From a candidate division FCPU426 bacterium (GTDB lineage: Bacteria > Oederibacteriota > Muellerivitia > Muellerivitales > Muellerivitaceae), in NCBI GenBank assembly GCA_963719085.1, contig CAVRAL010000001.1, positions 1,184,001 through 1,248,000 of the forward strand: a stretch of DNA of 64,000 nt, read 5' to 3'. How positions within the stretch are numbered: the stretch's first letter is position 1; each line of letters begins with the position of its first letter. Made by a program: the position numbers and the translations under genes. Shown here piece after piece: positions 228 to 63,786 of this stretch. The notes beneath the pieces were generated by a model. That model saw only the letters and a list, made by a program, of their open reading frames with translations. It was not told the DNA's origin and searched no databases.

Positions 228-250
228 AAAACGCCAGCACGGCCAACCCT

Positions 251-341
251 TTTGCAATGATGGACGCGGATGAACGCTGATTCGAATAACATAAATTAGG
301 TTTGATCATAATCGGCGTTTATCAGCGTTCATCATTGTTAA
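251..341. repeat. Intergenic palindrome, 10-mer-unit family, copy 1
   Basis: Left arm CAATGATGGACGCGGATGAACGCTGAT, AT-rich spacer, right arm ATCGGCGTTTATCAGCGTTCATCATTG. Confidence 0.85.
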
Positions 342-358
342 TTTTTTTCGATTTTATT

Positions 359-7114: not shown

Positions 7115-7186
7115 GGGCGATATTCTAAGGGTGAAGAGGGCCTCGACAAAGACTTTTTTTACCGGCCAGCCGGGAATAACAGGCAA

Positions 7187-7290
7187 TTAACAATGATGAA
7201 CGCGGATAAACACAGATTTAATTCCAAGCCCAAGATTGACAAGAAATCAAAGGTTTGGTGTATCGGCGTTCATCCGCGTCCATCATTGTT
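7187..7290. repeat. Intergenic palindrome, 10-mer-unit family, copy 2
   Basis: AACAATGATGAACGCGGATAAACACAGAT ... ATCGGCGTTCATCCGCGTCCATCATTGTT. Confidence 0.85.
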
Positions 7291-7299
7291 CCAATTTTT

Positions 7300-8100
7300 T
7301 CAGGAAGAGGCGCTGCGGTAGCGTTTGAGGCCCCGGTCCCAAATCCAGACCGTCAAAAAGAAAAAAACCAGACCCAAACCAAACCCATAAAACGCCAACC
7401 CGCCTTCCAACTTGTGGACCAGGACCGCCGCCGGGAAAGTGGAAACCACCAACATGGGGACCAGGGTCATCAAAAAATGGCGCAAGAGCCAGGGATAAAT
7501 ATCCCCGGGGTAGCGAGAGAATTGGCCGAACTGCCAGTAAAGTTCCATCAGGTTGCTGGAGCGGCCGATCCAAAAGGTCCAAACCGACAGAATGAAAAGG
7601 ATGGCGTAATAAATAAGGATGCCGTTCACCACCAGCGCGGCGAAAAGAATCGCTCCCCACAAAGTAATCCCCTCGCCCATCCGGTGCAGGCCGTAGAGGA
7701 TGATGCCGATCCCCAAAGTGCTGTTGAGCATGGAAGCGTAATCCGTATAACGCAGGGACACCAGGAACTGGGTATTGATGGGTTTGATCAGGCTGAAATC
7801 CAAATCACCCTGCCGGATCTGGTCGACCAGCTTGGTGCAGTTGTCGTAGAAGAACGCCTCGAAAAGCTGGCTGATGACGTGGTTGGTGCCCACCAACACC
7901 ACCATGTCCCATTTGGTCCATCCCACCAGTTCGCCGGTTTGTCCGTAAAGGACTTGGATGAAGATGAATTGCATGAAAAGCCACATGCCCTCGGTGAGCA
8001 GGCGCACGAGGAAGTTGGCCTTGAACTGCATCTCCCGCACCAAACAGTTCTTCATCATAAGAAACAAGAGACGGCTATAACGCCTCATCGAGGAACCCAT
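7300..8100 (-). CDS. ABC-2 family transporter permease
   Basis: IRQGDLDFSLIKP and RYPGDIYP motifs, about six TMs. Confidence 0.88.
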   Translation of the reverse strand: MGSSMRRYSRLLFLMMKNCLVREMQFKANFLVRLLTEGMWLFMQFIFIQVLYGQTGELVGWTKWDMVVLVGTNHVISQLFEAFFYDNCTKLVDQIRQGDLDFSLIKPINTQFLVSLRYTDYASMLNSTLGIGIILYGLHRMGEGITLWGAILFAALVVNGILIYYAILFILSVWTFWIGRSSNLMELYWQFGQFSRYPGDIYPWLLRHFLMTLVPMLVVSTFPAAVLVHKLEGGLAFYGFGLGLVFFFLTVWIWDRGLKRYRSASS

Positions 8101-8186
8101 TTTAAAAACCTTTCAAAGCCGGACATTTTCGCCTGGCGAAAATGTTAAAACTTAAAACCGAGAACCCGGAACTTAAAATCAATTTA

Positions 8187-9050
8187 TCATCCCCCCACCG
8201 CCGAATAGCGTTTGAGGCCGATTTTCCAAATTAACCGGCTGATGCCATAAAAAACGAAGACCCAGAGAACACCAATCCCCAACAAATGCGGCAGTTGAGC
8301 CGCCGGCACTTTCCCCATGAGGATCATGCAGGGCCAGTAACCTTCGTATCCGAAGGGCGACGCGTTCAGGAAAGGCTGCATATAAAGCGGCATGAGGTTC
8401 AAGGGAATCAAATGCCCCGACAAAAAGAACTCGAACATCATTACCACGAAAAGGAAGGTCGAAATCTCCAAAAACCAAAAAGCCAATAGCCCAATGGAAA
8501 AAGTAAAAAGCATGCCGATGGCGAAAGCGATCACCAGCGAAACCACAAAGGATCCCAATTCCAAGAGCGAAGGCGCGTGGGTAAAAAATTGGCGCATCAG
8601 GAAAAAAATCGGCGGGAAGGTGAAAAGCGCCACGTTCCAAAAAACAACCTTATGGGCCAGCCGGTAGCAGACCTGGTACCAGAAATAGTCCATGGGACGG
8701 ATCAAGTAGCGGTTTAACAGCCCGTCCTTGATGTCTTTGCTGATATCCCCCATGGTCCCGGGGATGCTGGAAAAACCCCGGGCGATATACATATAGGCGT
8801 AGTAGGTGATCATGTCCTGAAAGCTCATGCCCCGGATGGAGAGCGCCGCCCCCCCTTGCTGGCGCGAATGAAAAACGGCCAACCAGATGAAGATGGTGGT
8901 GACCAGCGGCAGAAAACGGAAAATCGCCCCAAAAATATAATTGGCCCGGTAAGCCATATCTTCCTGGGTCCGGGTCGAGAGAATAATCCAGTACTTGTGA
9001 AAAGCCGATCTTTTTTGATAAGTATCCATGGTTGTGTTTTCAGTCTCCAT
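8187..9050 (-). CDS. ABC-2 family transporter permease
   Basis: YRAN, IKDGLLNRYLIRP, LSGHLIPL motifs. Confidence 0.88.
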   Translation of the reverse strand: METENTTMDTYQKRSAFHKYWIILSTRTQEDMAYRANYIFGAIFRFLPLVTTIFIWLAVFHSRQQGGAALSIRGMSFQDMITYYAYMYIARGFSSIPGTMGDISKDIKDGLLNRYLIRPMDYFWYQVCYRLAHKVVFWNVALFTFPPIFFLMRQFFTHAPSLLELGSFVVSLVIAFAIGMLFTFSIGLLAFWFLEISTFLFVVMMFEFFLSGHLIPLNLMPLYMQPFLNASPFGYEGYWPCMILMGKVPAAQLPHLLGIGVLWVFVFYGISRLIWKIGLKRYSAVGG

Positions 9051-10029
9051 GGGACCCCGCGAAGACCTTCTCGATCACTTCCTCAATCGGCACTTCCTCG
9101 ATATTGATGTCATCCACGTCGAATTGATTCAACAGATCGTTCGATGACTTTTTCACCTTGTCCCGCGCCACCCTTAGGACAGCCTTTCCCGCGGTGTGTT
9201 CCACCACATCCCCCAAAGGTGAAAGCTGGTCCTTGGAAACAGTGCCGTTCTTGAAGGTCACCGTGACCAACTTGGATTGGGAGAACTTTTCCACCACGTC
9301 ATCCAACCGGCCGTCGAAAATCTTTTTGCCATGGTTGATCACGACCACCCGGTCGCAAAGGGCCTGGATGTCGTTCATATAGTGGCTGGTGAGAAGGATC
9401 GTGGTTTTGGTGCGGCGGTTGTAATCCTTGATGAACTCGCGGATATTTTTTTGCGCCACCACGTCCAAACCAATGGTGGGCTCGTCCAGGAAAAGCACCC
9501 GGGGGCTGTGCAGCAGCGAGGCGATCAGCTCGAACTTCATGCGCTCGCCCAAGGACAGCTCACGCACCATGATGCCCATCAGCTTCTTCACCTGCAAAAG
9601 CTCCGTCATCTCATCCAGGATTTTGTTGTAGGAATCATCCGTGACGCCGTAGATTTCTTTATTCAGGTAAAGCGACTCTTGCGCGGGCAAATCCCACCAA
9701 AGTTGGTTTTTCTGGCCCATGACCAGGGCGAATTGCCGGCGGTATTCGTTCTTGCGCTCCGAGGGAATGAAATCCATGATTTTGACTTCTCCCGAAGTCG
9801 GATAAAGGATGCCCGCCAGCATCTTGAGGGTCGTGGTCTTCCCCGCCCCGTTGGGCCCCAGGAACCCCACCAGTTCGCCTTCCTGAATCGAGAAAGAAAC
9901 CCCGTCCACCGCCCTGACTTCGGTGAATTCCCGGCTGAAGAGGCCCTTCACGGCCCCCCCGATGCCCGGCTGTCGTTTTTGAGTTCGATAAATTTTAGAG
10001 AGGTCCTTCACGTCGATGATCGGTGGCAA
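9040..10029 (-). CDS. ABC transporter ATP-binding protein
   Basis: GPNGAGKTT, LSLGERMK, FLDEPTIGLD; probable TTG start at 10029 after AAGGA. Confidence 0.92.
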   Translation of the reverse strand: MPPIIDVKDLSKIYRTQKRQPGIGGAVKGLFSREFTEVRAVDGVSFSIQEGELVGFLGPNGAGKTTTLKMLAGILYPTSGEVKIMDFIPSERKNEYRRQFALVMGQKNQLWWDLPAQESLYLNKEIYGVTDDSYNKILDEMTELLQVKKLMGIMVRELSLGERMKFELIASLLHSPRVLFLDEPTIGLDVVAQKNIREFIKDYNRRTKTTILLTSHYMNDIQALCDRVVVINHGKKIFDGRLDDVVEKFSQSKLVTVTFKNGTVSKDQLSPLGDVVEHTAGKAVLRVARDKVKKSSNDLLNQFDVDDINIEEVPIEEVIEKVFAGSHGD

Positions 10030-10159
10030 GAGGTGTCCTTTGGTTGAGGTGGGCGTCATTATAGGAAACGGCATCCCCGCTTTCCAACCCCCCGGAAAGA
10101 TTTCTTCGTTTCTTTTATCCCTTTCAATTTCAGAAGCGTCTTATTAAAGTTTCCCCATC

Positions 10160-19200: not shown

Positions 19201-19290
19201 TTTCACAATGATCAACGCGGATGAACGCCGATAAGAAATAATCCAATGTTTCCAAAAAATCCGCGCTCATCTGCGTCCATCATTGTTAAA
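19201..19290. repeat. Intergenic palindrome, 10-mer-unit family, copy 3
   Basis: ACAATGATCAACGCGGATGAACGCCGAT ... ATCCGCGCTCATCTGCGTCCATCATTGT. Confidence 0.85.
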
Positions 19291-19338
19291 TGCCTTTTCT
19301 TATTTTATCCCCGGAAAGCCCGAAGTTACAACCGGCAG

Positions 19339-23523: not shown

Positions 23524-23599
23524 GTTAATTTTCAAGGGCCCCGCCCGGGGCCCCTGTGGTACTATTTCCCGGATTTCAAAGCAAAACCAGGCCGAATCA

Positions 23600-23686
23600 T
23601 TTACATGGATGAACGCAGATGGACGCCGATTAAACACAAGAAATTATTTTTTATCATCAGCGTTCATCCGCGCACATCATTGTTAA
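23600..23686. repeat. Intergenic palindrome, 10-mer-unit family, copy 4
   Basis: GATGAACGCAGATGGACGCCGAT ... ATCAGCGTTCATCCGCGCACATCATTGTTAA. Confidence 0.85.
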
Positions 23687-23713
23687 TTGACTAAGATTTA
23701 AGGAGTTTTTGAA

Positions 23714-34132: not shown

Positions 34133-34215
34133 GCGGCTAAGGTATCTCCCCGCTTCCAGCCTGTCAAGTTAACAGGATAAAGGCGCTTGTCGCGCCAAGG
34201 CGCGGCGCCCCGCCC

Positions 34216-41432: not shown

Positions 41433-41517
41433 TGGTGCGAGAGGGGGGAGTCGAACCCCCATGGGTTTCCCCGCCAGATCCTAAGTCTGGTGCGTCTGCC
41501 AGTTTCGCCACCCTCGC
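41433..41517 (-). tRNA. tRNA-Leu (anticodon TAG)
   Basis: Acceptor GCGAGGG/CTCTCGC plus ACCA, anticodon arm CCAGA-CTTAGGA-TCTGG, long variable arm, GGTTCGACTCC T-arm. Confidence 0.95.
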
Positions 41518-47268: not shown

Positions 47269-47289
47269 AAACAGCGCGTTTACATTGAT

Positions 47290-47369
47290 CACAAATGATG
47301 AAGGCTGATGGGTAAAACCATTCTGCCGACTGCCTCATCATTCTTTCATCAGTCTCCATCATTGTTAAA
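47290..47369. repeat. Intergenic palindrome, 10-mer-unit family, copy 5 (degenerate)
   Basis: AATGATGAAGGCTGATG ... CATCAGTCTCCATCATTGTTAAA. Confidence 0.65.
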
Positions 47370-47374
47370 TCTTT

Positions 47375-48157
47375 TTATTTAAGGGCCTTCAAAATCGCGG
47401 CGTGCACCAGGCCGTTGCTGGAGACGGCGTTTCCGCCCTCAATCGTCTTGCGGCCAGATAGATCGGTGAATTGCCCCCCCGCTTCTTCCACGCAAATTTT
47501 GATCGCGGCCACGTCGTAGGGCTCCACCACCGGTTCCACCACCGCCTCCGCTTTTCCTTGGATCACCAAAGAATGGCCGTAACAGTCCCCAAAACCCCGG
47601 TCGTCGTAGCATTGGGCGATTAAATCCGTGAGTTTTTTCCGGTAAGTCATCGGAACCAGCCGCAGGCCCCCGTAAGTCAGGGTGCCGCCCCTTAAATCCG
47701 GTATCTTGGAGACATGGGTCCGTTTCCCATTCACGTAACAGCCCTGCCCCTTGGCCGCCCAAACGGTCATTGGAAGCGCGGGATGGTGAATGACCCCCGC
47801 CACCACTTCCCCCCGGTATTCCAAACCGATGAGGGTGCCCCAAAAAGGAATTCCCCGGATGAATTGCCGGGTGCCGTCCACCGGGTCAATCCACCAGCGA
47901 AACTCCGACTTTTGTTTCTTATCCCAGCCAAATTCCTCGCCGCATAATTGGTGATCCGGAAATTTTTTACCGAGAATCGCCCGAATCACCTGCTCGGCTT
48001 CCCGATCTGCCCGGGTCACGGGAGAGCGGTCGATTTTTTTAATGACCGGCACATTTTTCTGAAAATAATGGAGGGCTTTTTGGCCGCCTTTTTGGGCCGC
48101 CAGTCTGGCCGCCGCCAGATATTGATGGAGTCGCTTGGAAGTTAAAGAAGCCGCCAT
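47375..48157 (-). CDS. Inositol monophosphatase family protein (HisN-like histidinol-phosphatase)
   Basis: SPVTRAD, GEE, WIDPVDGT, RGFGDCYG, YDVAA...EEAGG. Confidence 0.85.
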   Translation of the reverse strand: MAASLTSKRLHQYLAAARLAAQKGGQKALHYFQKNVPVIKKIDRSPVTRADREAEQVIRAILGKKFPDHQLCGEEFGWDKKQKSEFRWWIDPVDGTRQFIRGIPFWGTLIGLEYRGEVVAGVIHHPALPMTVWAAKGQGCYVNGKRTHVSKIPDLRGGTLTYGGLRLVPMTYRKKLTDLIAQCYDDRGFGDCYGHSLVIQGKAEAVVEPVVEPYDVAAIKICVEEAGGQFTDLSGRKTIEGGNAVSSNGLVHAAILKALK

Positions 48158-48283: not shown

Positions 48284-48694
48284 TTACATCATCGGTTTGA
48301 CGGACCAATGAATCGGCTTATTTCCATCCGCGGCCACCAGCGCGGCCTTGGACGGAATCAAGGCGTCGGTTCCGTAGAGATCGCCCGTAATTTCAACCGT
48401 CTTACCCACCAGATTGGCGAAATTAGCCGCGGGAAAAAGCAGGACGTAAACCCGCCCCTTCACCAAAAGACCGGCGGGGCTTCCCAGGTTCAAGCAAGCT
48501 TTCCCGCAGGATTTCATCCCCATATGGTCGTCACCCGAGTCTCCGTCATCAAAATAGCAGGCCAAATCAATGATCGTCCCTTGAAGCGTCACGGTCGTCG
48601 GTTTGGCGGCCTTCATATCCATTGAATCGGCTTGGACCGCTGAACGCGCCGTCAGCCAGCCTAAAATCAAAAACAAGACCGTCAGTTTTCGCAT
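48284..48694 (-). CDS. Small exported protein with Cys/His motif
   Basis: GGAGG RBS, signal peptide, DLACY...H...CGKAC...GSPAG. Confidence 0.75.
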   Translation of the reverse strand: MRKLTVLFLILGWLTARSAVQADSMDMKAAKPTTVTLQGTIIDLACYFDDGDSGDDHMGMKSCGKACLNLGSPAGLLVKGRVYVLLFPAANFANLVGKTVEITGDLYGTDALIPSKAALVAADGNKPIHWSVKPMM

Positions 48695-48781
48695 CAAATC
48701 CTCCTGGAATTAATCCTTCGGTTTAAATAGCGCTTATCACCCCGAAAGGTTTCAAAAAGAGAACCAAGCGCCTAAGAACCT

Positions 48782-48956
48782 TTTTAGCATGGATAAAAGC
48801 GGATGAACGCTGATAAAAAATGACCCAATATTATATTTTCGAAAATCCATGTTTATCTGCATCCGCGCCGCTCTTCCATATAGGTGTCAAGGGAGAGCGG
48901 CATTGTCCCGGGCCTCCTTAACTCTTCTATGGGGTCCCGGGGCATCACTGCTCAAA
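48782..48956. repeat. Intergenic palindrome, 10-mer-unit family, copy 6, right arm interrupted
   Basis: GGATAAAAGCGGATGAACGCTGAT ... ATCCATGTTTATCTGCATCC [79 bp] ATCACTGCT. Confidence 0.8.
48865..48943. mobile_element. 79-bp twin-hairpin insert, copy A (mobility inferred)
   Basis: 64/79 ungapped identity with 53430-53508; same position in the host palindrome. Confidence 0.6.
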
Positions 48957-48980
48957 TGCCTTTTAGTTTTGTCAGAAGTT

Positions 48981-49460
48981 TTAAGTTAATTTTAAAATCC
49001 ACTCCCGGGCTGCCGGAAATTCGGCCAAAAGCTTTTCGGATGGCGCCAGCTCAAAATCCTCAAAATCAAACCCGGGAGCCACCGTGGTTCCCATCAAAGC
49101 GTAGTTCCCGCCCTCATTTAAAAAACCCCCGAACCAGGTTCCCGCCGGAATCACCAATTGAAGAGCTTGGTCTTGGTCGATGGCGGGCCCCAAAACTTTA
49201 GTTTCCGATTTACCGCCGTCGCGCAATAAAATCCAAGTCACCGGATCCCCCAAATAAAAATGGAAAATCTCATCCGACGCGAGCCGATGGAATTTTGACC
49301 GGGCTCCCGGAACCAAAAGATAATAGATGCAGGTGGAAAAAGAACGGCTCGCCCCTTCCCGAAGAGGGATGAGGCCCGAACTGCGGTAAGACTCGCGGTA
49401 GTAGCCCCCTTCCGGATGGGGCTTCAGGTCAAATGATCGAATGATCTGGTCGAGGGTCAT
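48981..49460 (-). CDS. Cupin_5 (DUF985) protein
   Basis: PHPEGGYYRE, FHRLASDEIFHFYLG, VAPGFDFEDF. Confidence 0.92.
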   Translation of the reverse strand: MTLDQIIRSFDLKPHPEGGYYRESYRSSGLIPLREGASRSFSTCIYYLLVPGARSKFHRLASDEIFHFYLGDPVTWILLRDGGKSETKVLGPAIDQDQALQLVIPAGTWFGGFLNEGGNYALMGTTVAPGFDFEDFELAPSEKLLAEFPAAREWILKLT

Positions 49461-49476
49461 GAAACCAACCTCCTTC

Positions 49477-49514
49477 AAAAAAAAAACGGACGGCCTCAAT
49501 CTAAAGGCCGTCCG
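49477..49514 (-). terminator. Intrinsic terminator after the FKBP gene
   Basis: CGGACGGCCT...AGGCCGTCCG followed by a T9 tract on the minus strand. Confidence 0.8.
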
Positions 49515-49529
49515 CGCGCGGCTTTTAGC

Positions 49530-50009
49530 TTATTGAGCGCCTAAGAGCTGCACATCAAAAACCAAGGTGGCATTGGGGGGAATCACGCCGCCGGCTCCCT
49601 GCGAACCGTAGCCCAAATTCGCCGGGATCGTCAGCTTGCGCTTCTCGCCGATCTTCATTCCCGCCACGCCCTCATCCCATCCTTTAATCACTTGGCCCGC
49701 GCCCAGGGTAAATTGAAAAGGCTGTCCCCGGTCCACTGAGCTGTCAAACTTGGTTCCGTCGGTCAGCCAACCCGTGTAATGCACCGTCACTAATTGTCCC
49801 GCCTTCGCCACCGCGCCATCGCCGGGCTGAAGGATTTGATATTGAAGCCCTGAGGCCGTTGTAATCACGTTCGCGTCCGGTGTAGCCGCCATGGTCGTCA
49901 CTCCCGTATTCATCGTTTGATTTTGAACTTCCTTCTTATTACAAGCCATCATCGTCGTCAAAAACCCCGCCACCAAACCCATCGTCATAAAGGATCGAAA
50001 TCCCCGCAT
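49530..50009 (-). CDS. FKBP-type peptidyl-prolyl isomerase, probable lipoprotein
   Basis: [28 protein letters not shown]; start moved to 50009 after GGGAGG; signal ending in MMAC. Confidence 0.94.
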
Positions 50010-50172
50010 CGGAACCTCCCTAAAATCATTTCTCAAATAAACCGCGCCAAAGTATACAAGACAGACGGCTTCTTTTTCATCCACCCAATAAAAAAGGCCT
50101 CCAATCAGATCGAGAAAATCCAATGGAAGCCTGATCAAACTTAAAATTTAAGCGCCGGACACAATGGACCCA

Positions 50173-50387
50173 GGCCCAACCTATCCTAGCTGACACGGGA
50201 TGGCCATGACTTAGGAGGATGCCGCCACCCTTATATTATTTGTCACATCATGAACACCAGCCACATGTTGGGCCAAACTAACCGGGGCCCAACATATCCT
50301 TGGCTGACACGGGATGGCCATGACTTAAGAGGATGCCGCCACCCTTATATTATTTGTCACATCATGAACACCAGCCACATGTTGGGC
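50173..50387. repeat. Tandem duplication (about 101-bp units) covering the BON gene 3' end
   Basis: 50173-50273 and 50286-50387 nearly identical. Confidence 0.92.
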
Positions 50388-50555
50388 GGCGCTAAAAGCG
50401 GCCCGTTTGTCCTCGAAATCCTCCGCCGTTCCCGACAAAGTCACATGCCCTCCTCGAGCGGAAACATGCGCGTTCGAGCAAAAAGGCCTTATTTCCCGAG
50501 CCACCACGGCTTCCAACTCGACGTCTTTCGGATCTGAAGCGTATGGACTGTTCAT
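50325..50555 (-). CDS. Small BON-domain protein
   Basis: GHVTLSG...AQHVAGVHDVTNNIRV; AGGAGG RBS. Confidence 0.85.
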   Translation of the reverse strand: MNSPYASDPKDVELEAVVAREIRPFCSNAHVSARGGHVTLSGTAEDFEDKRAAFSAAQHVAGVHDVTNNIRVAASS

Positions 50556-50698
50556 CGCGTCCTCCTATCACTTGAGCTTAGTTTAAGCATACGCCCCTTT
50601 TCCCGGCCTTTCAAAGGTCCTCGATTACCCCGCAGTGTCCCCACCCCGATTCGCCAAGTTGACACAACTTACACCCCTCCTTAAGATGCACGGCTTAT

Positions 50699-51724
50699 AT
50701 GGAAAACGCCCTTCAAGTTGAAAATTTATCCAAAAGCTACGAACGAAAAATCCGTAAACCCGGACTTTGGGGTTCTCTACAGGGATTGGTCTCCACCGCC
50801 TCCGAGCAAGTTCACGCCGTGCAAGGCGTTTCCTTTACCTTAAAACGGGGAGAACGGGTCGGCCTTATCGGTGAAAATGGCGCGGGCAAATCGACCACAT
50901 TGAAAATGTTGACCGGCATTTTGGTTCCCACCGGCGGACGCCTGGAAGTTTTAGGCCGCGTCCCTTGGAAAGAACGCCGTCAATTGGCCTTGAACATCGG
51001 CGTGGTTTTCGGCCAGCGCCCCCAGTTGCTTTGGGACATTCCAGTCCGGGAAACGTTTGAGCTGCTCAAGACCATGTACCGCATCCCCCCGTCGGTTTAT
51101 GACGTTGTCTACAAAGAGGCCATCCAACGTTTAAGATTGGAACCGCTGTTAGGCACCCCCGTGCGCCATCTTTCCCTCGGCCAGCGCATGCGCTGTGACC
51201 TGGCCGCCGCCTTGCTTCACGCGCCGGCCGTGGCGTTTCTCGACGAGCCCACAATTGGCTTGGACCTTTCGGTCAAGGAACAGGTCCGGGAATTTATCAC
51301 GGACATCCAAGCGAAGTTCGGCATCACGCTTCTCATCACCACCCACGACTTAAAAGACATCACCGAAACCTGCGACCGGCTTTTACTGCTGGATAAGGGA
51401 AAACTTTTATTCGACGGCTCCATCAAAGCCTTCGAGCAAAAATACGCCAATGACCGGAGGATTGTGGCGGAGGTGCAGCGGCTTTTGGACGCCGATTTAT
51501 TGGAGCGGTTAAAAAAGGACGTGGCCGCGCTGGGGGGCAAAGTCACGGAAGCCGAAGGCCACCGGATCGTGGTGGAACACGGCGAAGAAAGCGCGGCCCC
51601 CGCCCTCATCCAGCTATTGCTGCAACGCCTGCCGGTGGTGGATATTAATTTGGAAAAGACCGACATCGAAACCATCGTCACGCGCATTTACCGCCCGGCC
51701 GAATCCGAAAGCCGGACTTCGTGA
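50699..51724 (+). CDS. ABC transporter ATP-binding protein
   Basis: GENGAGKST, LSLGQRMR, FLDEPTIGLD. Confidence 0.92.
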   Translation: MENALQVENLSKSYERKIRKPGLWGSLQGLVSTASEQVHAVQGVSFTLKRGERVGLIGENGAGKSTTLKMLTGILVPTGGRLEVLGRVPWKERRQLALNIGVVFGQRPQLLWDIPVRETFELLKTMYRIPPSVYDVVYKEAIQRLRLEPLLGTPVRHLSLGQRMRCDLAAALLHAPAVAFLDEPTIGLDLSVKEQVREFITDIQAKFGITLLITTHDLKDITETCDRLLLLDKGKLLFDGSIKAFEQKYANDRRIVAEVQRLLDADLLERLKKDVAALGGKVTEAEGHRIVVEHGEESAAPALIQLLLQRLPVVDINLEKTDIETIVTRIYRPAESESRTS

Positions 51725-52551
51725 AAGCCCTGGCCGCCCCCTTAAACTTTCGGGAAAGCGCCGCCGGCTATCGGGCCCTGCTGAACCGGGCCTTGAAGGC
51801 CAACTTCGCCTATAAGGGCTCGACCTTGATCGGGCTTTTCACCGCGGCCTTGACCTACGCCATTACACTGTTGGTCTGGCGTCATGTTTACGCGCAAAAG
51901 GGCGGAACCCTTTCGATCTCCTCCGAGCAAATGTTCGCCTACCTGGCCCTGGCTTTTTGTCTGAACTATGCCTTGACCATCAATATTGACCAGCGGGTCG
52001 GCCAGCGCATCCGCTTGGGGCTCATCGCCACCGATCTTTTGAAACCCCTGGACTTCCAAATGTCGCAGGCCATGCAATCCTTGAGCGACTGCCTTTTTAA
52101 CGGTCTGGTCGGAGCCATGGTTTTCGCCACGGCTTACCTTTTTTTAGGAAAAAGCCTCTTTCCGCAAAGTTGGGAGTCGTTTCTTTTTTTCATCCCCAGC
52201 CTGATCCTGGCTTTTTGGATCCAATATTCGCTGGTTTTTATTTTCATTCAAGGCGCCTTCTACACTTACAGCGGCTACGGAATCTTTTCATCCCGGATCG
52301 CCTTGCACCAAACTTTTTCCGGACTTCAAGCGCCTCTCATTCTTTATCCGCCGGTTTTGCGGACCGTCGGTGATTGGCTTCCCTTCCAACACATTATTTA
52401 CACTCCGATCACGCTTTATATGGGCCGGGCCGCGGGACTGGAAGCTTGGCGGCTTTTGGGTTGGCAGGCGCTTTGGGCCGCGGGGCTTTATTTCATCGGC
52501 CAATGGGTGATGAAAAAGGCGCTCTCCCAGCTTGAAATTCAGGGGGGCTGA
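51721..52551 (+). CDS. ABC-2 family transporter permease
   Basis: IRLGLIATDLLKP, FSGLQAPL, LPF motifs; GTGA overlap with the ATPase gene. Confidence 0.87.
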   Translation: MKALAAPLNFRESAAGYRALLNRALKANFAYKGSTLIGLFTAALTYAITLLVWRHVYAQKGGTLSISSEQMFAYLALAFCLNYALTINIDQRVGQRIRLGLIATDLLKPLDFQMSQAMQSLSDCLFNGLVGAMVFATAYLFLGKSLFPQSWESFLFFIPSLILAFWIQYSLVFIFIQGAFYTYSGYGIFSSRIALHQTFSGLQAPLILYPPVLRTVGDWLPFQHIIYTPITLYMGRAAGLEAWRLLGWQALWAAGLYFIGQWVMKKALSQLEIQGG

Positions 52552-52552
52552 C

Positions 52553-53335
52553 ATGGGCGAATGGAAGGTCTATTGGATGACTTTCAAGGTCTCCCTCCAG
52601 GCCAAGCTCGAGTATAAACTCGACTTCCTCATCGGACTTGTCACGTCCACCATGCTGCAATTGGCGGCCTTGGGATTTTTATGGGTGATCTTCCATCAAA
52701 CTTCCACGCTGCAGGGCTGGAACCAGACCCAAGTGGTTTTTCTATTCGGCCTGACGGCGACAGCCTTGGGACTTTCGGAACTTTTTTTCAACCACATTTG
52801 GATGGTGCCTTACTACATCGTGGTGGGAGACTTGGACCGGTTACTGGTCTATCCGGTTCGATCGCTTCCTTTTCTGCTCATCTCGCGCCCCGAACTTCAT
52901 TCCTTCGGCAACATGGCCACCGGACTTGTCTTGACCTTCGGCGCGCTTTGGAAATTGCATTTACCTTGGATGGATTGGGTCCTGGTGCCCCTTTGGGCCT
53001 TCAGTGGATGTCTCATCTATACATCCGCCTTGGTCGTCTTTTCGAGCCTGTCGTTCCGGTTCGTCGGGCCCTTCAGCTACAGTCTGATGATCCCCCACAC
53101 TTTGCTTCAGGCCAGCCGTTACCCCCTAAGCATTTATCCCGCGTGGGTGCATTACAGCCTGTTGGTCTTGGTTCCCTTCGGCGCCTTTAATTACCTGCCG
53201 GGCAATTGGGTTTTCGGAAATATCCCCTCACCCCTGGGCGCCTTAGCCGCTCCGGTAGCCGCGCTGATTTCGATGGCGGCCGCCCAATGGTTTTGGAACA
53301 AAGGCCTGGAGCAATATCAAAGCACGGGTTCCTAA
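52553..53335 (+). CDS. ABC-2 family transporter permease
   Basis: GDLDRLLVYP, RYPLSIYP; start moved to 52553. Confidence 0.87.
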   Translation: MGEWKVYWMTFKVSLQAKLEYKLDFLIGLVTSTMLQLAALGFLWVIFHQTSTLQGWNQTQVVFLFGLTATALGLSELFFNHIWMVPYYIVVGDLDRLLVYPVRSLPFLLISRPELHSFGNMATGLVLTFGALWKLHLPWMDWVLVPLWAFSGCLIYTSALVVFSSLSFRFVGPFSYSLMIPHTLLQASRYPLSIYPAWVHYSLLVLVPFGAFNYLPGNWVFGNIPSPLGALAAPVAALISMAAAQWFWNKGLEQYQSTGS

Positions 53336-53360
53336 AACAGGGTCTTAAAGAAAAAGAAAT

Positions 53361-53521
53361 TTTCACAATGATGAGCGCGGATAAACGGCGATAAATCCAA
53401 CTTTTGATTCATCTTTCCAATCAGCGTTCGCGCCGCTCTTCCATATCGTAGTCAGGGGAGAGCGGCATTGTCCCATGCGTCTTTAACTTGCATATGGAAT
53501 CCCGGGACATCATCGCTAATT
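53361..53521. repeat. Intergenic palindrome, 10-mer-unit family, copy 7, right arm interrupted
   Basis: TTTCACAATGATGAGCGCGGATAAAC ... ATCAGCGTTC [79 bp] ATCATCGCTAAT. Confidence 0.8.
53430..53508. mobile_element. 79-bp twin-hairpin insert, copy B (mobility inferred)
   Basis: Same length and position in the host palindrome as 48865-48943. Confidence 0.6.
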
Positions 53522-53577
53522 GCTTTTGTCGTTTGAACCCTACACAAAAATCCGTCTATGTGAATAAATTTGGTTTT

Positions 53578-54336
53578 TTACGAAGCGGGCTGAATCACCA
53601 AACGGTCCGACATGGTCTTGCCCCCGGCCTTGAGGACCACCGAATAGATTCCGGGGGGAACCGGACGGCCCGATTCGTCCATTCCATCCCAATCAATCTC
53701 ATGAATCCCCTTCTGCCACTCCCCCTCATAAAGACGGCGGATCGGAGTTCCGTCCGCGCCCGCCACCGAGAGCGTCACGGATTGTTTTTGCTCGGATTCA
53801 ATCGAGAGATAAATCCGGTCACCTTCCTGAAAAACCAATTCTTTACCCGCCGCCGAAAGACTAGGAGAGACGCCGATGGCGTCCTCCCGGACCGCGGGCG
53901 TCAAGAGGGCCCGCACCATGACTTGCCGAATCGGGGCGCTCAAGGGCTTTGGTTCCGGACGGAAATTCTCGCGCGAAACCTTCACGCGAGCCGGCTTGTG
54001 TCGCAAGGTTTGTTTCGCCCAATCCCCCAAAAGAAAAAGAAACCCTAAAGCCGCCAATCCCATCAATCCCAAACCAATCCAAGGCCGAAATTTGAATAGT
54101 ATGGATTTCCAGGAAACCCCGGATCGTGCGGCGCCCGGCTTAGGCTCGGGTGCGGTTAAACCCTTTTGCGCGGGCGGCTCGTCCCGTATATGGCGGAAAG
54201 CTTTTTGGACCGCCTCAGTCACTTCATTTGAAAAAGAGGGATCTTTACGGGTCAGGCGCTCGAATTCCCGGCGGGCTTCGGGACTGAGACTGCCTTCAAG
54301 GTAGAGTTGAATCAAAGTTTCTCGGGGCCAAGGCAT
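53578..54336 (-). CDS. Anti-sigma-like membrane protein with C-terminal FlgD-Ig-like domain
   Basis: N-terminal YLEGSLSPEARREFE, one TM, C-terminal IRRL...WDGMDESGRPVPPGIY. Confidence 0.7.
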   Translation of the reverse strand: MPWPRETLIQLYLEGSLSPEARREFERLTRKDPSFSNEVTEAVQKAFRHIRDEPPAQKGLTAPEPKPGAARSGVSWKSILFKFRPWIGLGLMGLAALGFLFLLGDWAKQTLRHKPARVKVSRENFRPEPKPLSAPIRQVMVRALLTPAVREDAIGVSPSLSAAGKELVFQEGDRIYLSIESEQKQSVTLSVAGADGTPIRRLYEGEWQKGIHEIDWDGMDESGRPVPPGIYSVVLKAGGKTMSDRLVIQPAS

Positions 54337-58394: not shown

Positions 58395-58565
58395 GGCATC
58401 CTCCCTAAAATTTCATCCGCCCTCACATTACCGCTTCCTATTTAAAAAGGTTACCCCCTCACCGGCCGGAATTTCACGAAAGAGGGGAAGACGAAAAATA
58501 AAAGGAGCGGTATAATCCTAAAGATTTAATCGGTTAAACCCATTCAAAGCCGGAACCAAACCTTG

Positions 58566-60185
58566 ATGCGTTCATCCCTATCCAAAGCCTTCACCCTCAG
58601 CCTTTGTGTCACGGGTTTATCCATCACCTTCTCATTTCCTTCAAACCTTTTGGCCCAATGCACGCCCACCTCGGCCGTCATCTGCGCCAATGGCGACGAC
58701 TTAATGTCGGTGTGGATCAATAATTATGGACCCATCAATTTTACTTTTTGCTACTACACGAATAATTGCGTTCCCCAATGTTTCAGCCTTCCGGTTTCGA
58801 TTTTAAGCCAAACCAACAACTTCGTCGCGGCCCAGATCACCAATAACGCTCCCACCCAAAGTTACGGCACCTATCTGCTGGATGTTTCCTGTTCCGGCGG
58901 AAACCACGCTTATGTCACCAACGCGGACGGCAACACCACCCTTTTTTACGACCCCACGGGAACCAACCCACCCCCGAACGACGGCGGAGGCCTGGCCTGG
59001 ACCGACCCGGCTTATTCCTACGGCGTCACTTGGGGGCCCGCCGCCGCGGTGACCACTTTCGTACAGGGAAAATTATTAGTCGACCCCCTGACCGGCACTT
59101 ATATCCCCCCGACGGCGCAGAACGCGCAAGCCTACGCGCCGCTGGGCACCGAGGTCGCTTATCTACGGCAATCTTTTCCCATTACGGTGGTTCATCCGCC
59201 CCCGGCGGATCCGATTTTCACCGTTTCCCAAACCATCCTGGGCCTGAGTTCGGGCGTCAGCACCCAACCCATCACTTACGTGGATACGATCTGCGATACC
59301 GGCGGCTTCACCGCCGACGCGGTGACCCTCACCGATATTTTGGACTCCGACTTAAGTTACGCCGGGCCCTATGGACCCTTCAACGGAATTAATTTCACCG
59401 GATCCGGACCCAACGCTCAATTCGATTTTCCGGCCACCCTTTGGTCCAACGGCGAATGCCAGTCGGTGACCTTTTACGGCGTTAATTATAGTTTTAACTC
59501 GGCGCAAAATTGCCATGTGGCCGGCAATGCCGGGTCCGTCACTTACACCGTGAACGCCGGTGTCACGGCCGGCGCCTTTACGGGTGTTCCCGCCACCTTT
59601 TATTGTCCTGGAACCCCGACCTCCACTTTCACCCCGGCCCCCACGTCAACCGCGACGTCCACCCGCACCCCCACTCCCACCCAAACGCCTCAGTTCACGC
59701 CGACCTGGACCTTGTCCCCCACCATTACCCTGACGCCGACCATTACTCTTTCCGCGACCTTCACCCAAACACCCACCCAAACCCGGACGCCGACCCAAAC
59801 CTTTACCTTTACGCCCACCCCTACCATCACCGCGACCCCCACGATCACGAACACCCCGACCATTACCCTGACCCCGACCATCACGGACACCCCGGGTCCC
59901 ATTACTTTTTATATTTCAAAAAACGTGATCACTTCCAGCTCGGATCCGGTTTCAATTTATGTCAGCTACCAAGTGCCGGGCGTTTACGGCCTGAAAATTT
60001 ACAACTCAGCCGGCGAGTTCATTGACGACCTGACAAACTCAGGCACCAACCCCACCGGGCTCTCCCATACTTTTTCCTGGGACGGGTCCAATTACCTCAA
60101 GCAAAAATGCGCCAGCGGCATTTACATCATTTATTACTTGCAACCGCAAAAGGTGAGCGAAGCGAAGATCCTTTTATTACGGTGA
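58566..60185 (+). CDS. Secreted Cys-rich protein with Thr/Pro linker and FlgD-Ig-like C-terminal domain
   Basis: Signal peptide, lectin-like GDD region, DUF11-like segment (VTLTDIL), TPT repeats, KIYNSAGE...WDG...ASGIY...KILLLR. Confidence 0.85.
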
Positions 60186-60376: not shown

Positions 60377-60519
60377 CTAAAATACCTATAAACCTACTCG
60401 AACACCCACTTAAAGCCCGTAATAAAGTACGGAAAATTAATCACTTTTATGGTCTTTGGGCCGTTTGCTTGATAACGTTTCAAGTTGTTTCATCACTCAG
60501 GAGCCCTCGATTGAATTCG

Positions 60520-63500
60520 ATGGAAAAAACTAACCGAATTCGCGCCCGCTTCCAGTCCACCTTATCTTTGGTGGCCCTCGCGTTTCTATTGCTTCCTTCT
60601 AAGACGCTTGCCGCCGCCATCAACTACACCGGAACTTCTTACTGTCCGACCTACACAACCTTTACCGTAAGTGAACAAGAAACCGCCTATGACTTGAATA
60701 CTTCCAGCCCGACTACTTTGGGCGCATGCGGCGTTAATGAGAAAATGTTTGACTCGACCCATTATGCCGCCATTGAACCGGGCGATTGGGAAAACGGAGC
60801 GGCTTGCGGCGCATGCGCGGTTTTAAATTACAACACCCACGCGACCACCGTCATGATCGTGGATGAATGCGCGACTTGCGGAAACGGCTCCCATCATCTT
60901 GACCTTTCCTACACCGCCTACGGGGAGTTGGTCGGCTCCCCTGGTTGCGCCACCCCGACCGGTAGCGGCGGCGGCGTGAATACCGGCGGTTGTCCCGCCG
61001 CGCCAGGCGCCAACAGCACCACTTGGCATTTCATTCAATGCCCCCTTACCGGGGAAGCCGCCATCACCAACAGCAACGCCAGCGGTGATATCAGCTATAT
61101 CTTTAAGGACGGCTCATCGGCTGGTTGGCATCCCATTGAGTTCTGGGACACCCTTTTCCCTATTGCCTCAGTGGCGGTCGGAACCTCCTCAACCTCCTTC
61201 ACTAACGTTGCCCGCGACACCGGCGACACCCTTCCCGAATATTGGGGAGGCACCGGCGACCCCAGCAATGGCGACGGCACCCTTTACTACAAGATCACGG
61301 ACGACCGCGGCAATTCGGTGACTCTCGGCCCCATTACGGCCGCTTCCCCCGTCCGAAATTCAAACAACTCGTTCGTCCAGTTCGGATCCACCAGCATCCA
61401 ACTTCCCGCCTGCGTCACGGGCCCCACGAATACCTTCACGGTCACGCCGATTCCGGGAACTCCCACGAACACCCCAACCATCACCCGGACCTTCACCCCC
61501 ACCGCGACCATCACTCCCATCTCGGGTTGCGAAACATTCCTCTACAACGGAACGGCGCCCACCGCCAAAGCCAACGTCTCCACCAACCAGAATAACCTAA
61601 CCATCACCGAAACCACCGGCGCCGCCTATACCGCCGGAGGGGACACCGATGGCCTGAACCTGGCCGTCAACGTCGCCGCCAATACCTACTACGCCCTCAT
61701 GCAGCTCAACTGGTCGAATTACGCCAACGCCAAAACCATCAACTTATCGAATTACTCCGTGGTGCAATTTGACATCGACAACACCACCGCCGCGGCGTCG
61801 CCCATGACTTATACAGTCTCCCTCTCGGATTACACGGGAGCCGGAACCGGAGCTCCCGGCACCACCCAGTCCAATCCGGTCACGGTCGTGGTCACGGGAA
61901 CCGGATGGCAAACCATCAGCCTGCCCACATCCTCCTTTATGACGGGCGGGGCCAGCTATACCACCGCCAATGTCGGCGAGATTGATTTGGAACTGCTTAC
62001 CTCCGCCGCCGCCGAGACCGCCACGGTTTATTTTGACAGTCTGGGTTTTTACGGCGCCTGCGCCACCCCGACCCCCACGCCCACCGTCACTCGAACGAGG
62101 ACTCCCACTCCCACGCCGACCCAGACCAGCACGGTGACCGCTACCTTCACGCCCACCCAGTCCTTTACCATCACCCCAACCCGCACACCGACGCTCAGCC
62201 CCACGCAAACGTCCACCTTTACGCAAACTTTCACGCTGACGCAAACCGCCACCAAGACCTTTACCGGAACTCCCACGAATACTTTGACCGCCACTTCCAC
62301 CCGCACTCAAACCTCAACCCCCACGATCACGGACACTCCCGTGCCGGGCGCCACCAGCACTTTCACCGCGACCGTGACCTCAACCTTCACCACGACCTCG
62401 ACCCGGACCACTACCCCTACCGCCACCATTACCAACACCCCCGTCCCGGGAGCCACCAGTACCTTTACCGGAACCGCCACGACGACCTTCACCCAAACCT
62501 TGACCAAAACCCCGACCGCCACTCGTACCGCCACCTCCACGTCCACTCCAACGAACACCTCCACGCCTTTGTTCACCTTCACCGCCACCCAGACACCCCT
62601 GTTCAGCTATACGCCGACCTTCACCCCGACCATTACCCCGACCCCCACCATCACCGACACTTTCACGTCAACCTTTACAGCCACACCCTCCGGAACCCCC
62701 ACCAATACCGCGACGGTCACCGCCACTCAAACTTCGACCCATACGCCGACCATCACCTTGACGCCCACTCAAACCTTTACTCCGACCGCCACCGGCACGG
62801 GGACCTCTACCTGGACGCCAACTTTCAGCCCCACGTCGACTCAAACCCCGACTTTCACCAAAACCCCGACCAACAGCTTTACACCCACCTTCACCCTGAC
62901 CCCCACCAACACCTATACCCCAACCTTTACCCCCACGATGACCTTCACGCCGGTTCCGGCCTCGGTTAATGTTTCTACCGGCCCTTCGAATCCGCCGAAT
63001 AGCGGTTCCATCCCGGGCGCCGCCAATGTTTCGGTGATGCAATTGCAAGCCACCAATACCAACGCCGAGGCCGCGACCCTGACCGGTGTGACCTTGACGG
63101 CGTCGGGAACCGGAAATTCCAACAACGGCGTCCAGGTTTACATCTATTTGGATAATTCCGGCGATGGTACGGTGGGATCCGGCACGACCCTTTTGGCTAC
63201 GGGAACCTACGCGGGAAACACCCTGACCCTGACCTTCAACCAACCGCTTCCCGCTTCTTCCACGGTCAAATTGCTGATCGCCTACACCTTCTCGGGAACC
63301 GCCACGGCCGGCACCTATCAAGCCGCCGTCAACCTGAACTCGAATATCACCGGTACCACCGCCGGATCCAACGTCGCCATCCAGGTCACGGGCGCCCCGG
63401 TTTTAAGCTCGGTCGTCACGATCGCCGAGCCAACGGCCACCTCCACCGCTACGGCGACCCCGACAGCCACTTGGACGCCGACAATTACCTTTACGCCTGT

Positions 63501-63786
63501 GCCTTCCACCTTCTTCATCTCGGAAAACGTGATCACGCCGACCTCTGGTCCGGTTTCGATTTATGTCAGCTTCCCGGAAGCCGGTAAGTACGAGATGAAG
63601 ATCTACAACTCAAACGGGGAATTCATTAAAGATTTGGGTCAGGGCGTCAGTTCGGGCGTCAACAGCTATTCCTTCTCCTGGGCCGGCACCAATTACTTGA
63701 ACCAACCCTGCGCCAGCGGCATTTATATCATTTATTTCCTTCAGCCTTTGGGCGTCAAAGAAGCCAAAATCCTCCTGATCCGCTGA
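60520..63786 (+). CDS. Secreted expansin-like multidomain protein with long Thr/Pro linker and FlgD-Ig-like C-terminal domain
   Basis: GACG, YAAI...[20 protein letters not shown] (DPBB), then FKDGSSAGW (expansin D2-like); start may be TTG 60511. Confidence 0.85.

Follow-up and report, generated by a model that had tools for sequence, protein, structure and literature searches.

The DNA analysed here is a 64-kb window, the whole stretch of 64,000 nucleotides from position 1,184,001 to 1,248,000 of contig CAVRAL010000001.1 (assembly GCA_963719085.1, a candidate division FCPU426 bacterium). It is core chromosome, carrying tig-clpP-clpX, serA, flgD-flgE, genes for signalling proteins, and two ABC-2 transporters. 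The leucyl aminopeptidase encoded in the window has relatives of 74-96% identity in metagenome-assembled genomes and metagenomes, and Elusimicrobia relatives of about 50% identity. At two intergenic sites a palindromic repeat is interrupted by a 79-bp element made of two hairpins, and these two inserts, copies A and B, are the subject of this report. Copy A lies between two minus-strand genes, a Cupin_5 gene ending at 48981 and the gene of a 137-aa protein starting at 48697. Copy B lies between two convergent genes, one for an ABC-2 permease (end at 53335) and flgD (end at 53578). The inserts and their hairpins occupy the following positions of the window.

48865..48943, plus strand: twin-hairpin insert copy A, 79 bp, scoring 107 bits against the covariance model
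48867..48901, plus strand: hairpin 1 of copy A, an 11-bp stem with a 13-nt loop; loop motif CCATATAGGTGTCAA at 48876-48890
48905..48943, plus strand: hairpin 2 of copy A, 12 pairs interrupted by one internal mismatch, with a 13-nt loop; mirrored motif at 48918-48932 on the minus strand
53430..53508, plus strand: twin-hairpin insert copy B, 79 bp, scoring 100.7 bits against the covariance model
53432..53466, plus strand: hairpin 1 of copy B, its stem the same as that of copy A; motif at 53441-53455
53470..53508, plus strand: hairpin 2 of copy B, the outer 5-6 pairs kept and the inner stem re-registered or broken; mirrored motif at 53483-53497 on the minus strand

The covariance model was built from copies A and B, and the window was searched with it at full sensitivity with filters off. 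Realignment of the two copies reproduced the 79-bp length, the coordinates, and the gapless match at 64 of 79 positions (81%) that a first-pass annotation of this DNA had claimed. The 15 differences, 8 transitions and 7 transversions, fall at element positions 18, 20, 21, 26, 46, 47, 50, 53, 60-63, 69, 70, and 78. An unsupervised repeat search of the window recovered the pair independently (as family D8), and the ungapped identity between A and B drops from 81% within the insert to 18/40 in each 40-nt flank. The longest run of invariant positions spans 19 nt (P = 0.16), and together with the next longest it covers 36 (P = 0.028); with two copies, the differences are only weakly clustered beyond chance.

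The repeats that host the inserts belong to a family of palindromes with 10-bp arm units, GATGAACGCN in the left arm and its complement in the right, and arms that end CAATGATG...CATCATTG. Seven such palindromes lie in the window, five of them uninterrupted, and all are intergenic and placed in short gaps. A 17-mer of the arm has 10 matches in the window against 0.16 expected, a number reached in none of 100 shuffles, and a 13-mer pattern of the arm occurs 22 times against 5.7 expected. The palindromes are 93-120 bp long, their spacers differ in all seven copies, and their asymmetric T-rich flanks (TTTTCACAATGATG on the left, CATCATTGTTAAWT..TTTT on the right) place all seven in one orientation. 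Arm-to-arm complementarity is lowest in the two interrupted hosts, which score 17 and 20 against 24-38 for the others. BLASTN of the uninterrupted palindrome r3 against plasmids gave no match, nor did a search of the literature for the host 13-mer as a sequence string. The members of the family are located as follows.

250..354, plus strand: uninterrupted palindrome r1
7186..7305, plus strand: uninterrupted palindrome r2
19201..19302, plus strand: uninterrupted palindrome r3, the nearest relative of hosts A (69%) and B (66%) and a paralogous empty site
23599..23699, plus strand: uninterrupted palindrome r4
47278..47381, plus strand: uninterrupted, degenerate palindrome r5
48783..48864, plus strand: host A, comprising the left arm (units GATAAAAGCG and GATGAACGCT), the spacer, and the proximal right arm ending ATCTGCATCC
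48944..48967, plus strand: terminal segment of the right arm of host A (ATCACTGCTCAAATGCC...), displaced by the insert
53361..53429, plus strand: host B, comprising the left arm, the spacer, and the proximal right arm ending ATCAGCGTTC
53509..53532, plus strand: terminal segment of the right arm of host B (ATCATCGCTAATTGC...)

Two of these palindromes directly follow operons for ABC-2 type transporters, the uninterrupted r2 after the operon at 7300-10074 (minus strand) and the interrupted host B after that at 50699-53335 (plus strand). A recent duplication of the operons that carried the palindrome along was considered and rejected, since the one permease pair compared is only 21% identical. 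The plus strand has a negative GC skew in 15 of its 16 4-kb bins, and the majority of genes lie on the minus strand. By the usual rule, this would make the minus strand the leading-strand sequence and the lagging-strand template.

In both interrupted palindromes the insert follows the final 10-mer unit of the right arm, which is ATCTGCATCC in host A and ATCAGCGTTC in host B, and precedes the terminal ATCAYYGCT. At the same junction the five intact copies read ...GTTC, ...GTCC, or ...GCAC and continue directly with ATCATTGTT. The insert junction, ...YC^ATCAY..., falls at the same base in 2/2 copies. The left flank ends in CC or TC and the element in GC or AC, which have 1 nt only in common; the boundary is ambiguous by one C, and any duplication is 1 nt at most. 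Excising the 79 bp restores an ordinary arm, and that of A then resembles the intact r3 (AAAATCC...ATCTGCRTCC ATCAYTGYT(C)AAATGCCTTTT). On the minus strand TGAT stands directly 5' of the element in 2/2 copies, but TGAT also belongs to the host repeat consensus and recurs at other unit borders. Seen against the five intact arms, the first-pass annotation was therefore correct in placing both insertions at C^ATCA of the right arm, and its statement that removal restores the arm with no clear target duplication is borne out, at most one C being shared. The element is thus a discrete insert that interrupts two copies of the repeat at an identical phosphodiester and leaves the target unduplicated.

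Folding recovered the two hairpins described for each copy, including the weaker inner stem of hairpin 2 in copy B. Hairpin 1 comprises 11 pairs that are identical in A and B, and one of them, a G.U (G.T) pair on the plus strand, becomes a C.A mismatch on the minus strand. The claimed invariance of hairpin 1 accordingly stands, but a special constraint on it is statistically weak with n = 2. Hairpin 2 has 6 invariant pairs, 3 changed on one side between wobble and Watson-Crick, and 3 broken in copy B, where the inner part refolds in a different register. The feet of the hairpins lie 2 nt and 0 nt from the insert ends. A motif scan also reproduced the account of the loops as inverted copies of CCATA-N5-GTYAR, with 7 of the 15 differences between A and B falling in the N5 cores. 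Against 0.15 expected, the 64 kb contain four occurrences of this motif, all in the four loops and two per strand. Loop 2 bears it on the strand opposite to loop 1, at a centre-to-centre distance of 42 bp in both copies. The mirrored motifs give the element a pseudo-dyad axis, and the reverse complements of copies A and B score 44.2 and 23.6 bits, respectively, against the model built from the two forward copies.

Two mirrored bipartite sites set 42 bp, or about four helical turns, apart could form a duplex module bound by a dimeric or looping protein, much as an IHF-binding motif lies inside some Escherichia coli bacterial interspersed mosaic elements (BIMEs). The variable N5 cores are what would be expected of a spacer between half-sites, and the 42-bp spacing kept in both copies and the pseudo-dyad symmetry also fit. 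We nonetheless consider this very improbable. CCATA-N5-GTYAR is found nowhere else in the 64 kb, the 11-13-bp stems around the sites would be superfluous for duplex binding, and the identical insertion point would be left unexplained.

The folds also bear on whether the insert acts as RNA. Folded as RNA, the plus strand reaches -42.7 kcal/mol in copy A (z -4.9) and -31.0 kcal/mol in copy B (z -2.8), better than the -36.1 and -27.0 kcal/mol of the minus strand, and the G.U pairs of the plus strand are C.A mismatches on the minus strand. Frames through the element score as non-coding in a codon-usage ratio based on 24 window genes (-0.05 to -0.58 against +0.10 to +0.45 for the neighbours), a result on which a coding reading was rejected. 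The insert might on these grounds be a structured RNA made from the plus strand, either a small RNA or a 3' or intergenic cis element, with the repeat merely its location. Several results make this an improbable alternative. No pair in either hairpin has changed on both sides (covariation 0), and 3 of the 12 pairs of hairpin 2 are broken in B. Rfam gave no match at the element even at E<=10, and a terminator or promoter role was rejected, no consistent signal of either kind being seen. The plus strand is antisense to both neighbours at A but lies downstream of an operon at B. As DNA, both strands fold almost equally well, at -19.4 (z -3.8) and -16.1 kcal/mol (z -3.0) for the plus strand of A and B and -17.6 and -15.4 kcal/mol for the minus strand.

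The loops give no sign of pairing with each other or with their surroundings. Loop-loop pairing energies of -1.7 and -1.8 kcal/mol are equalled by 79% and 42% of shuffled loops, and kissing loops were rejected because these energies lie within the shuffle range; the same values count against a structured RNA. The longest matches between loop and flank are 3-5 nt, attained by 35-100% of shuffles, and guides matching the local flanks were rejected on this result. With loops neither complementary to the local flanks nor pairing beyond shuffles, a guide-RNA reading is left without support.

A comparison of inserts with hosts, as the first-pass annotation had suggested, addresses whether one insertion or two took place. 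Once the inserts are taken out, hosts A and B agree at 62 of 109 aligned columns (57%) and at 45 of 79 arm columns. The identity of the inserts (64/79) exceeds both that of the arms (Fisher p = 0.0018) and that of the whole hosts (p = 0.0005). Hosts A and B are each nearer to r3 (69% and 66%, respectively) than to each other (57%), and they form the closest host pair in 0.2% of 10,000 column bootstraps. As far as these alignments reach, A and B do not appear as demonstrable sisters, which a copied-together history would require. An insert more alike than its hosts, in hosts that are not demonstrably sisters, favours either acquisitions that were separate and site-specific or selection on the insert itself.

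The same comparison is the best ground on which to weigh the alternative that the insert is not self-mobile and is instead a 'long form' of the palindromic repeat, acquired once and then spread with the host or by homologous exchange through the arms. Both copies occupy the same arm in the same orientation, only 4.5 kb apart, in hosts that are both old and decayed, and fixed extra motifs of this kind are familiar from mosaic repeats such as BIMEs. The excess of insert identity over host-arm identity (81% against 57%, p = 0.002) and the greater closeness of each host to r3 are harder to accommodate, and the homology available for conversion is short and imperfect, with 6/10 matches in the unit that precedes the insert and about 16/21 in the sequence that follows it. 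Host states shared by A and B speak partly for a single origin, as one of the three that are derived is GCT in place of GTT in the terminal segment beside the insert; the pairs A and r3 and B and r3 share just as many. The long form would also explain the lack of a further copy in the searched data and of an enzyme in the window. We judge it unlikely on balance, while regarding it as the strongest competitor.

The reading that we prefer to the long form, if tentatively and as something short of probable, is that the 79-bp insert is an old, non-autonomous, site-specific module that parasitises the REPIN-like repeat and is moved in trans by an enzyme encoded outside the window. In its favour are the common junction with recovery of an intact-type arm on excision, the fall in identity at the insert edges, the excess of insert identity over host identity, and the closeness of each host to r3. 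To these come the strong folding as RNA and as DNA, the mirrored loop motif, TGAT at the 5' side on the minus strand, the single orientation of all seven palindromes together with the GC skew, and the precedents of ISPpu9 and of IS200/IS605 elements and their PATE derivatives. Other results weigh against it, some of them from the host comparison itself. Polarised with the other four copies, the shared derived host states number three each for A and B, A and r3, and B and r3; such equal counts mean a star-like host tree, which would also fit a single origin. The GCT state shared by A and B stands only eight bases from the insert. The pattern of host distances could be due to long branches, an explanation made possible by the arm-to-arm complementarity of hosts A and B, the poorest of the seven. 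The higher identity of the insert could likewise come from selection rather than youth. The outcome of the comparison is divided: the insert is more conserved between sites, but the host tree is star-like.

The copy census also weighs on this side. The covariance search of the window found only A and B. A third candidate at 34151-34208 on the minus strand, the best hit after the two copies (E = 0.068, 15.6 bits), was rejected as a GC-rich hairpin region without the motif. That region forms a GC-rich double hairpin downstream of a phosphoglycerate dehydrogenase gene and is read as unrelated, perhaps a terminator. A scan of 185,579 genomes, one per species, used the inner hairpin-1 stem plus the loop motif, a pattern chosen to catch also single hairpins or hairpins separated by a gene. 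It returned only two loci, one in a Chitinophagaceae metagenome-assembled genome and one in Ohessyouella; both are read as chance, since the outer stem and hairpin 2 are absent. BLASTN gave no match for copy A among plasmids and phages, and none for host plus insert among E. coli genomes.

Searches of protein sets for further copies miscalled as coding sequence were equally unrewarding. For the plus-strand frame that is open through copy A, no word-sharing candidate was found among proteins of 33-105 aa, and alignment of the minus-strand frame of both copies found nothing among proteins of 17-77 aa. A full HMMER pass gave three matches (E 2e-5 to 6e-5; proteins of 517-1994 aa; 5-9 matched stretches), which were dismissed as low-complexity noise on the match table alone. 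None of the 57 open reading frames (ORFs) scanned in the window belongs to a transposase or recombinase family, and 14 of them are without a Pfam family. The ORF next to copy A was considered as a candidate enzyme and rejected on its predicted signal peptide and the lack of a family above cut-off.

48284-48697, minus strand: ORF of the 137-aa protein next to copy A, with DUF5818 as best match (E = 0.013, below the gathering score)

Its hydrophobic N-terminus is read as a predicted signal peptide, and the product would accordingly be a small protein that is secreted.

These searches bear on several points of the first-pass annotation. It had recognised no described family, and this agrees with what was found: Rfam 15 at the gathering score over the whole window gave no match at the element and only a tRNA at 41436-41517, the seven weak Rfam matches at E<=10 in 48600-53800 do not lie over either copy, and the hairpin-1 14-mer as a sequence string gave no match in the literature. 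It had also asked whether longer copies enclose a recombinase or transposase; none was found in the searches, and the 57 window ORFs include no such enzyme. Finally, it had named only two copies with no covariation as one of the findings that would speak against a mobile element. The data searched show exactly that, n = 2 copies and 0 covarying pairs, and by this standard the mobile-element claim is not established. Its picture of a non-autonomous parasite of the repeat thus keeps the discrete, same-base insert and the excess conservation of the insert, and falls short in the number of copies, the covariation, and the enzyme.

Under the preferred reading of a module moved in trans, the module would have reached this one junction of the repeat on two or more occasions, or else through a process that affected only the insert. 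The mirrored hairpin loops are likely recognition features. A dimeric or two-site recombinase or transposase would recognise the mirrored hairpins and loop motifs, pair the two ends, and join these to the host arm at its ATCA junction, leaving no target duplication. The 19% divergence of the copies and their seat in the two most decayed hosts make them look like relics rather than active elements. As to the type of enzyme, we lean slightly towards a single-strand 'peel and paste' route catalysed by an HUH transposase (RAYT or IS200-like), although even this route is rather unlikely. Ranked after it, and by analogy with the solo ssr9 modules of ISPpu9, is an IS110-type recombination of a transposase-less module, which seems a fairly remote prospect. 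More speculative still is the idea that the insert is the smallest substrate of a kind of site-specific recombination not yet described. In that case it would be a 79-bp 'hyperparasite' confined to another non-autonomous repeat, with the mirrored loops, their conserved half-sites and free 5-nt cores, as its whole recognition apparatus for an enzyme that has yet to be connected with ends of this kind; there is little reason to expect this to be so.

Two further features of the window are recorded here. A 102-nt block is tandemly duplicated at 50189-50404 (92% identical, period 114) within the 560-nt intergenic region between divergent genes for an FKBP and an ABC ATPase. Each unit is bracketed by GGCCCAAC...GTTGGGCC, has no Rfam match, and is no more stably folded than shuffled sequence (z +0.95 and -1.5 on the plus strand, -0.4 and -1.9 on the minus strand). 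In addition, two large ORFs without a Pfam family, at 58563-60185 and 60469-63786, are rich in C/A-rich repeats with a 6-nt period (families D1-D3). They share a 79-nt segment of 78% identity near their 3' ends (60067-60145 and 63668-63746), which may encode a common C-terminal sorting or anchoring domain.

Among the closest known systems is ISPpu9, an IS110-family element of Pseudomonas putida that inserts at a fixed position of repetitive extragenic palindromic (REP) sequences. Transposase-less ssr9 modules of ISPpu9 occur alone in the genome, and these modules (A'-B') are interpreted as selfish passengers of a transposase encoded elsewhere (PMC12288879). The likeness to the present insert is of a small gene-less module standing alone at a fixed site in a REP-type palindrome with no ordinary duplication. 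An end motif of ISPpu9 resembles a palindrome of its target, of which the loop sequence TCCATA-N5-GTYAA offers a weak echo when set against the host terminus TCCATCATTGTTAA. Other details differ. The same AG dinucleotide is present at both junctions of ISPpu9, whereas the insert shares at most one C, and the A box (43 bp) and B box (16 bp) of ISPpu9 are not mirrored hairpins, whereas the insert's hairpins are mirrored.

The wider IS110/IS1111 group compares in a similar way. Both sit at a specific site of a REP-type palindrome with no ordinary duplication, and the size range of seekRNAs, 74-96 nt (PMC11187229), spans the insert's 79 bp. The core dinucleotide repeated at both junctions in IS110/IS1111 elements, once from the target and once from the element, does not occur at the insert, a further point against a module moved in this way. 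Bridge RNAs and seekRNAs have segments complementary to both target strands, whereas the loops of the insert match the local flanks no better than chance. No IS110 DEDD transposase is encoded among the window ORFs.

IS200/IS605 elements and their gene-less PATE derivatives insert beside a short motif without duplication and use hairpins at their ends (PMC10055086). The insert is alike in its lack of target duplication, its hairpins at both ends, and its gene-less size class. It also stands next to TGAT on the minus strand, which should be the one exposed as single-stranded DNA at the replication fork, although TGAT is equally part of the host consensus. The end hairpins of IS200/IS605 are described as alike on one strand, whereas the insert's loops are reverse-complementary and its stems unrelated, and its would-be end motif GGCGC is unlike TGAT. 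IS608 has spaced guide and cleavage-site motifs near its end hairpins. With hairpin feet 0-2 nt from the ends, the insert leaves no room for a guide of the IS608 type, which likewise tells against its mobility by this route, and no Y1 (HUH) transposase is encoded among the 57 window ORFs.

REPINs concern both the host and the insert. They are described as a pair of REP-like arms in inverted orientation around a variable spacer, about 89 bp in all (PMC3337134), and the host palindromes match this architecture even better than the insert does. The insert resembles REPINs in having two inverted palindromic units with a short spacer, a size of about 80-90 bp, and an intergenic, non-coding position. 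Its mirrored loops and the matches of its reverse complements to the model (44.2 and 23.6 bits) agree with the inverted arrangement of units. The two units of a REPIN pair into one long hairpin, whereas the minimum-energy and centroid folds of the insert are two separate hairpins, and REPINs number tens to hundreds of copies and go with a cognate RAYT flanked by the repeat, whereas n = 2 copies of the insert and no RAYT were seen in the window. We know of no description of one such doublet lying within a second at a fixed base, nor do the papers compared give one.

A classical miniature inverted-repeat transposable element would have terminal inverted repeats and a target duplication. The insert has neither, its ends matching at 7-8 of 13 positions when reverse-complemented, which is one more point against the mobile-module reading. 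Among mosaic intergenic repeats, ERIC sequences have long forms with internal insertions of about 70 bp. BIMEs, too, have short and long forms with an extra block at a fixed internal position, as here. ERIC itself is given as a 127-bp repeat in PMC3184786.

The insert fits no described family or end architecture among those tested. As a mere long form of the palindrome, it would be an ordinary feature of mosaic intergenic repeats. If mobile, it would exemplify one repeat parasitising another with single-base precision, in a lineage of uncultured bacteria. Both the HUH and the IS110 mechanisms were discovered through minimal, duplication-free substrates defined by hairpins, and a third such end architecture, if true, would point to an enzyme worth finding.

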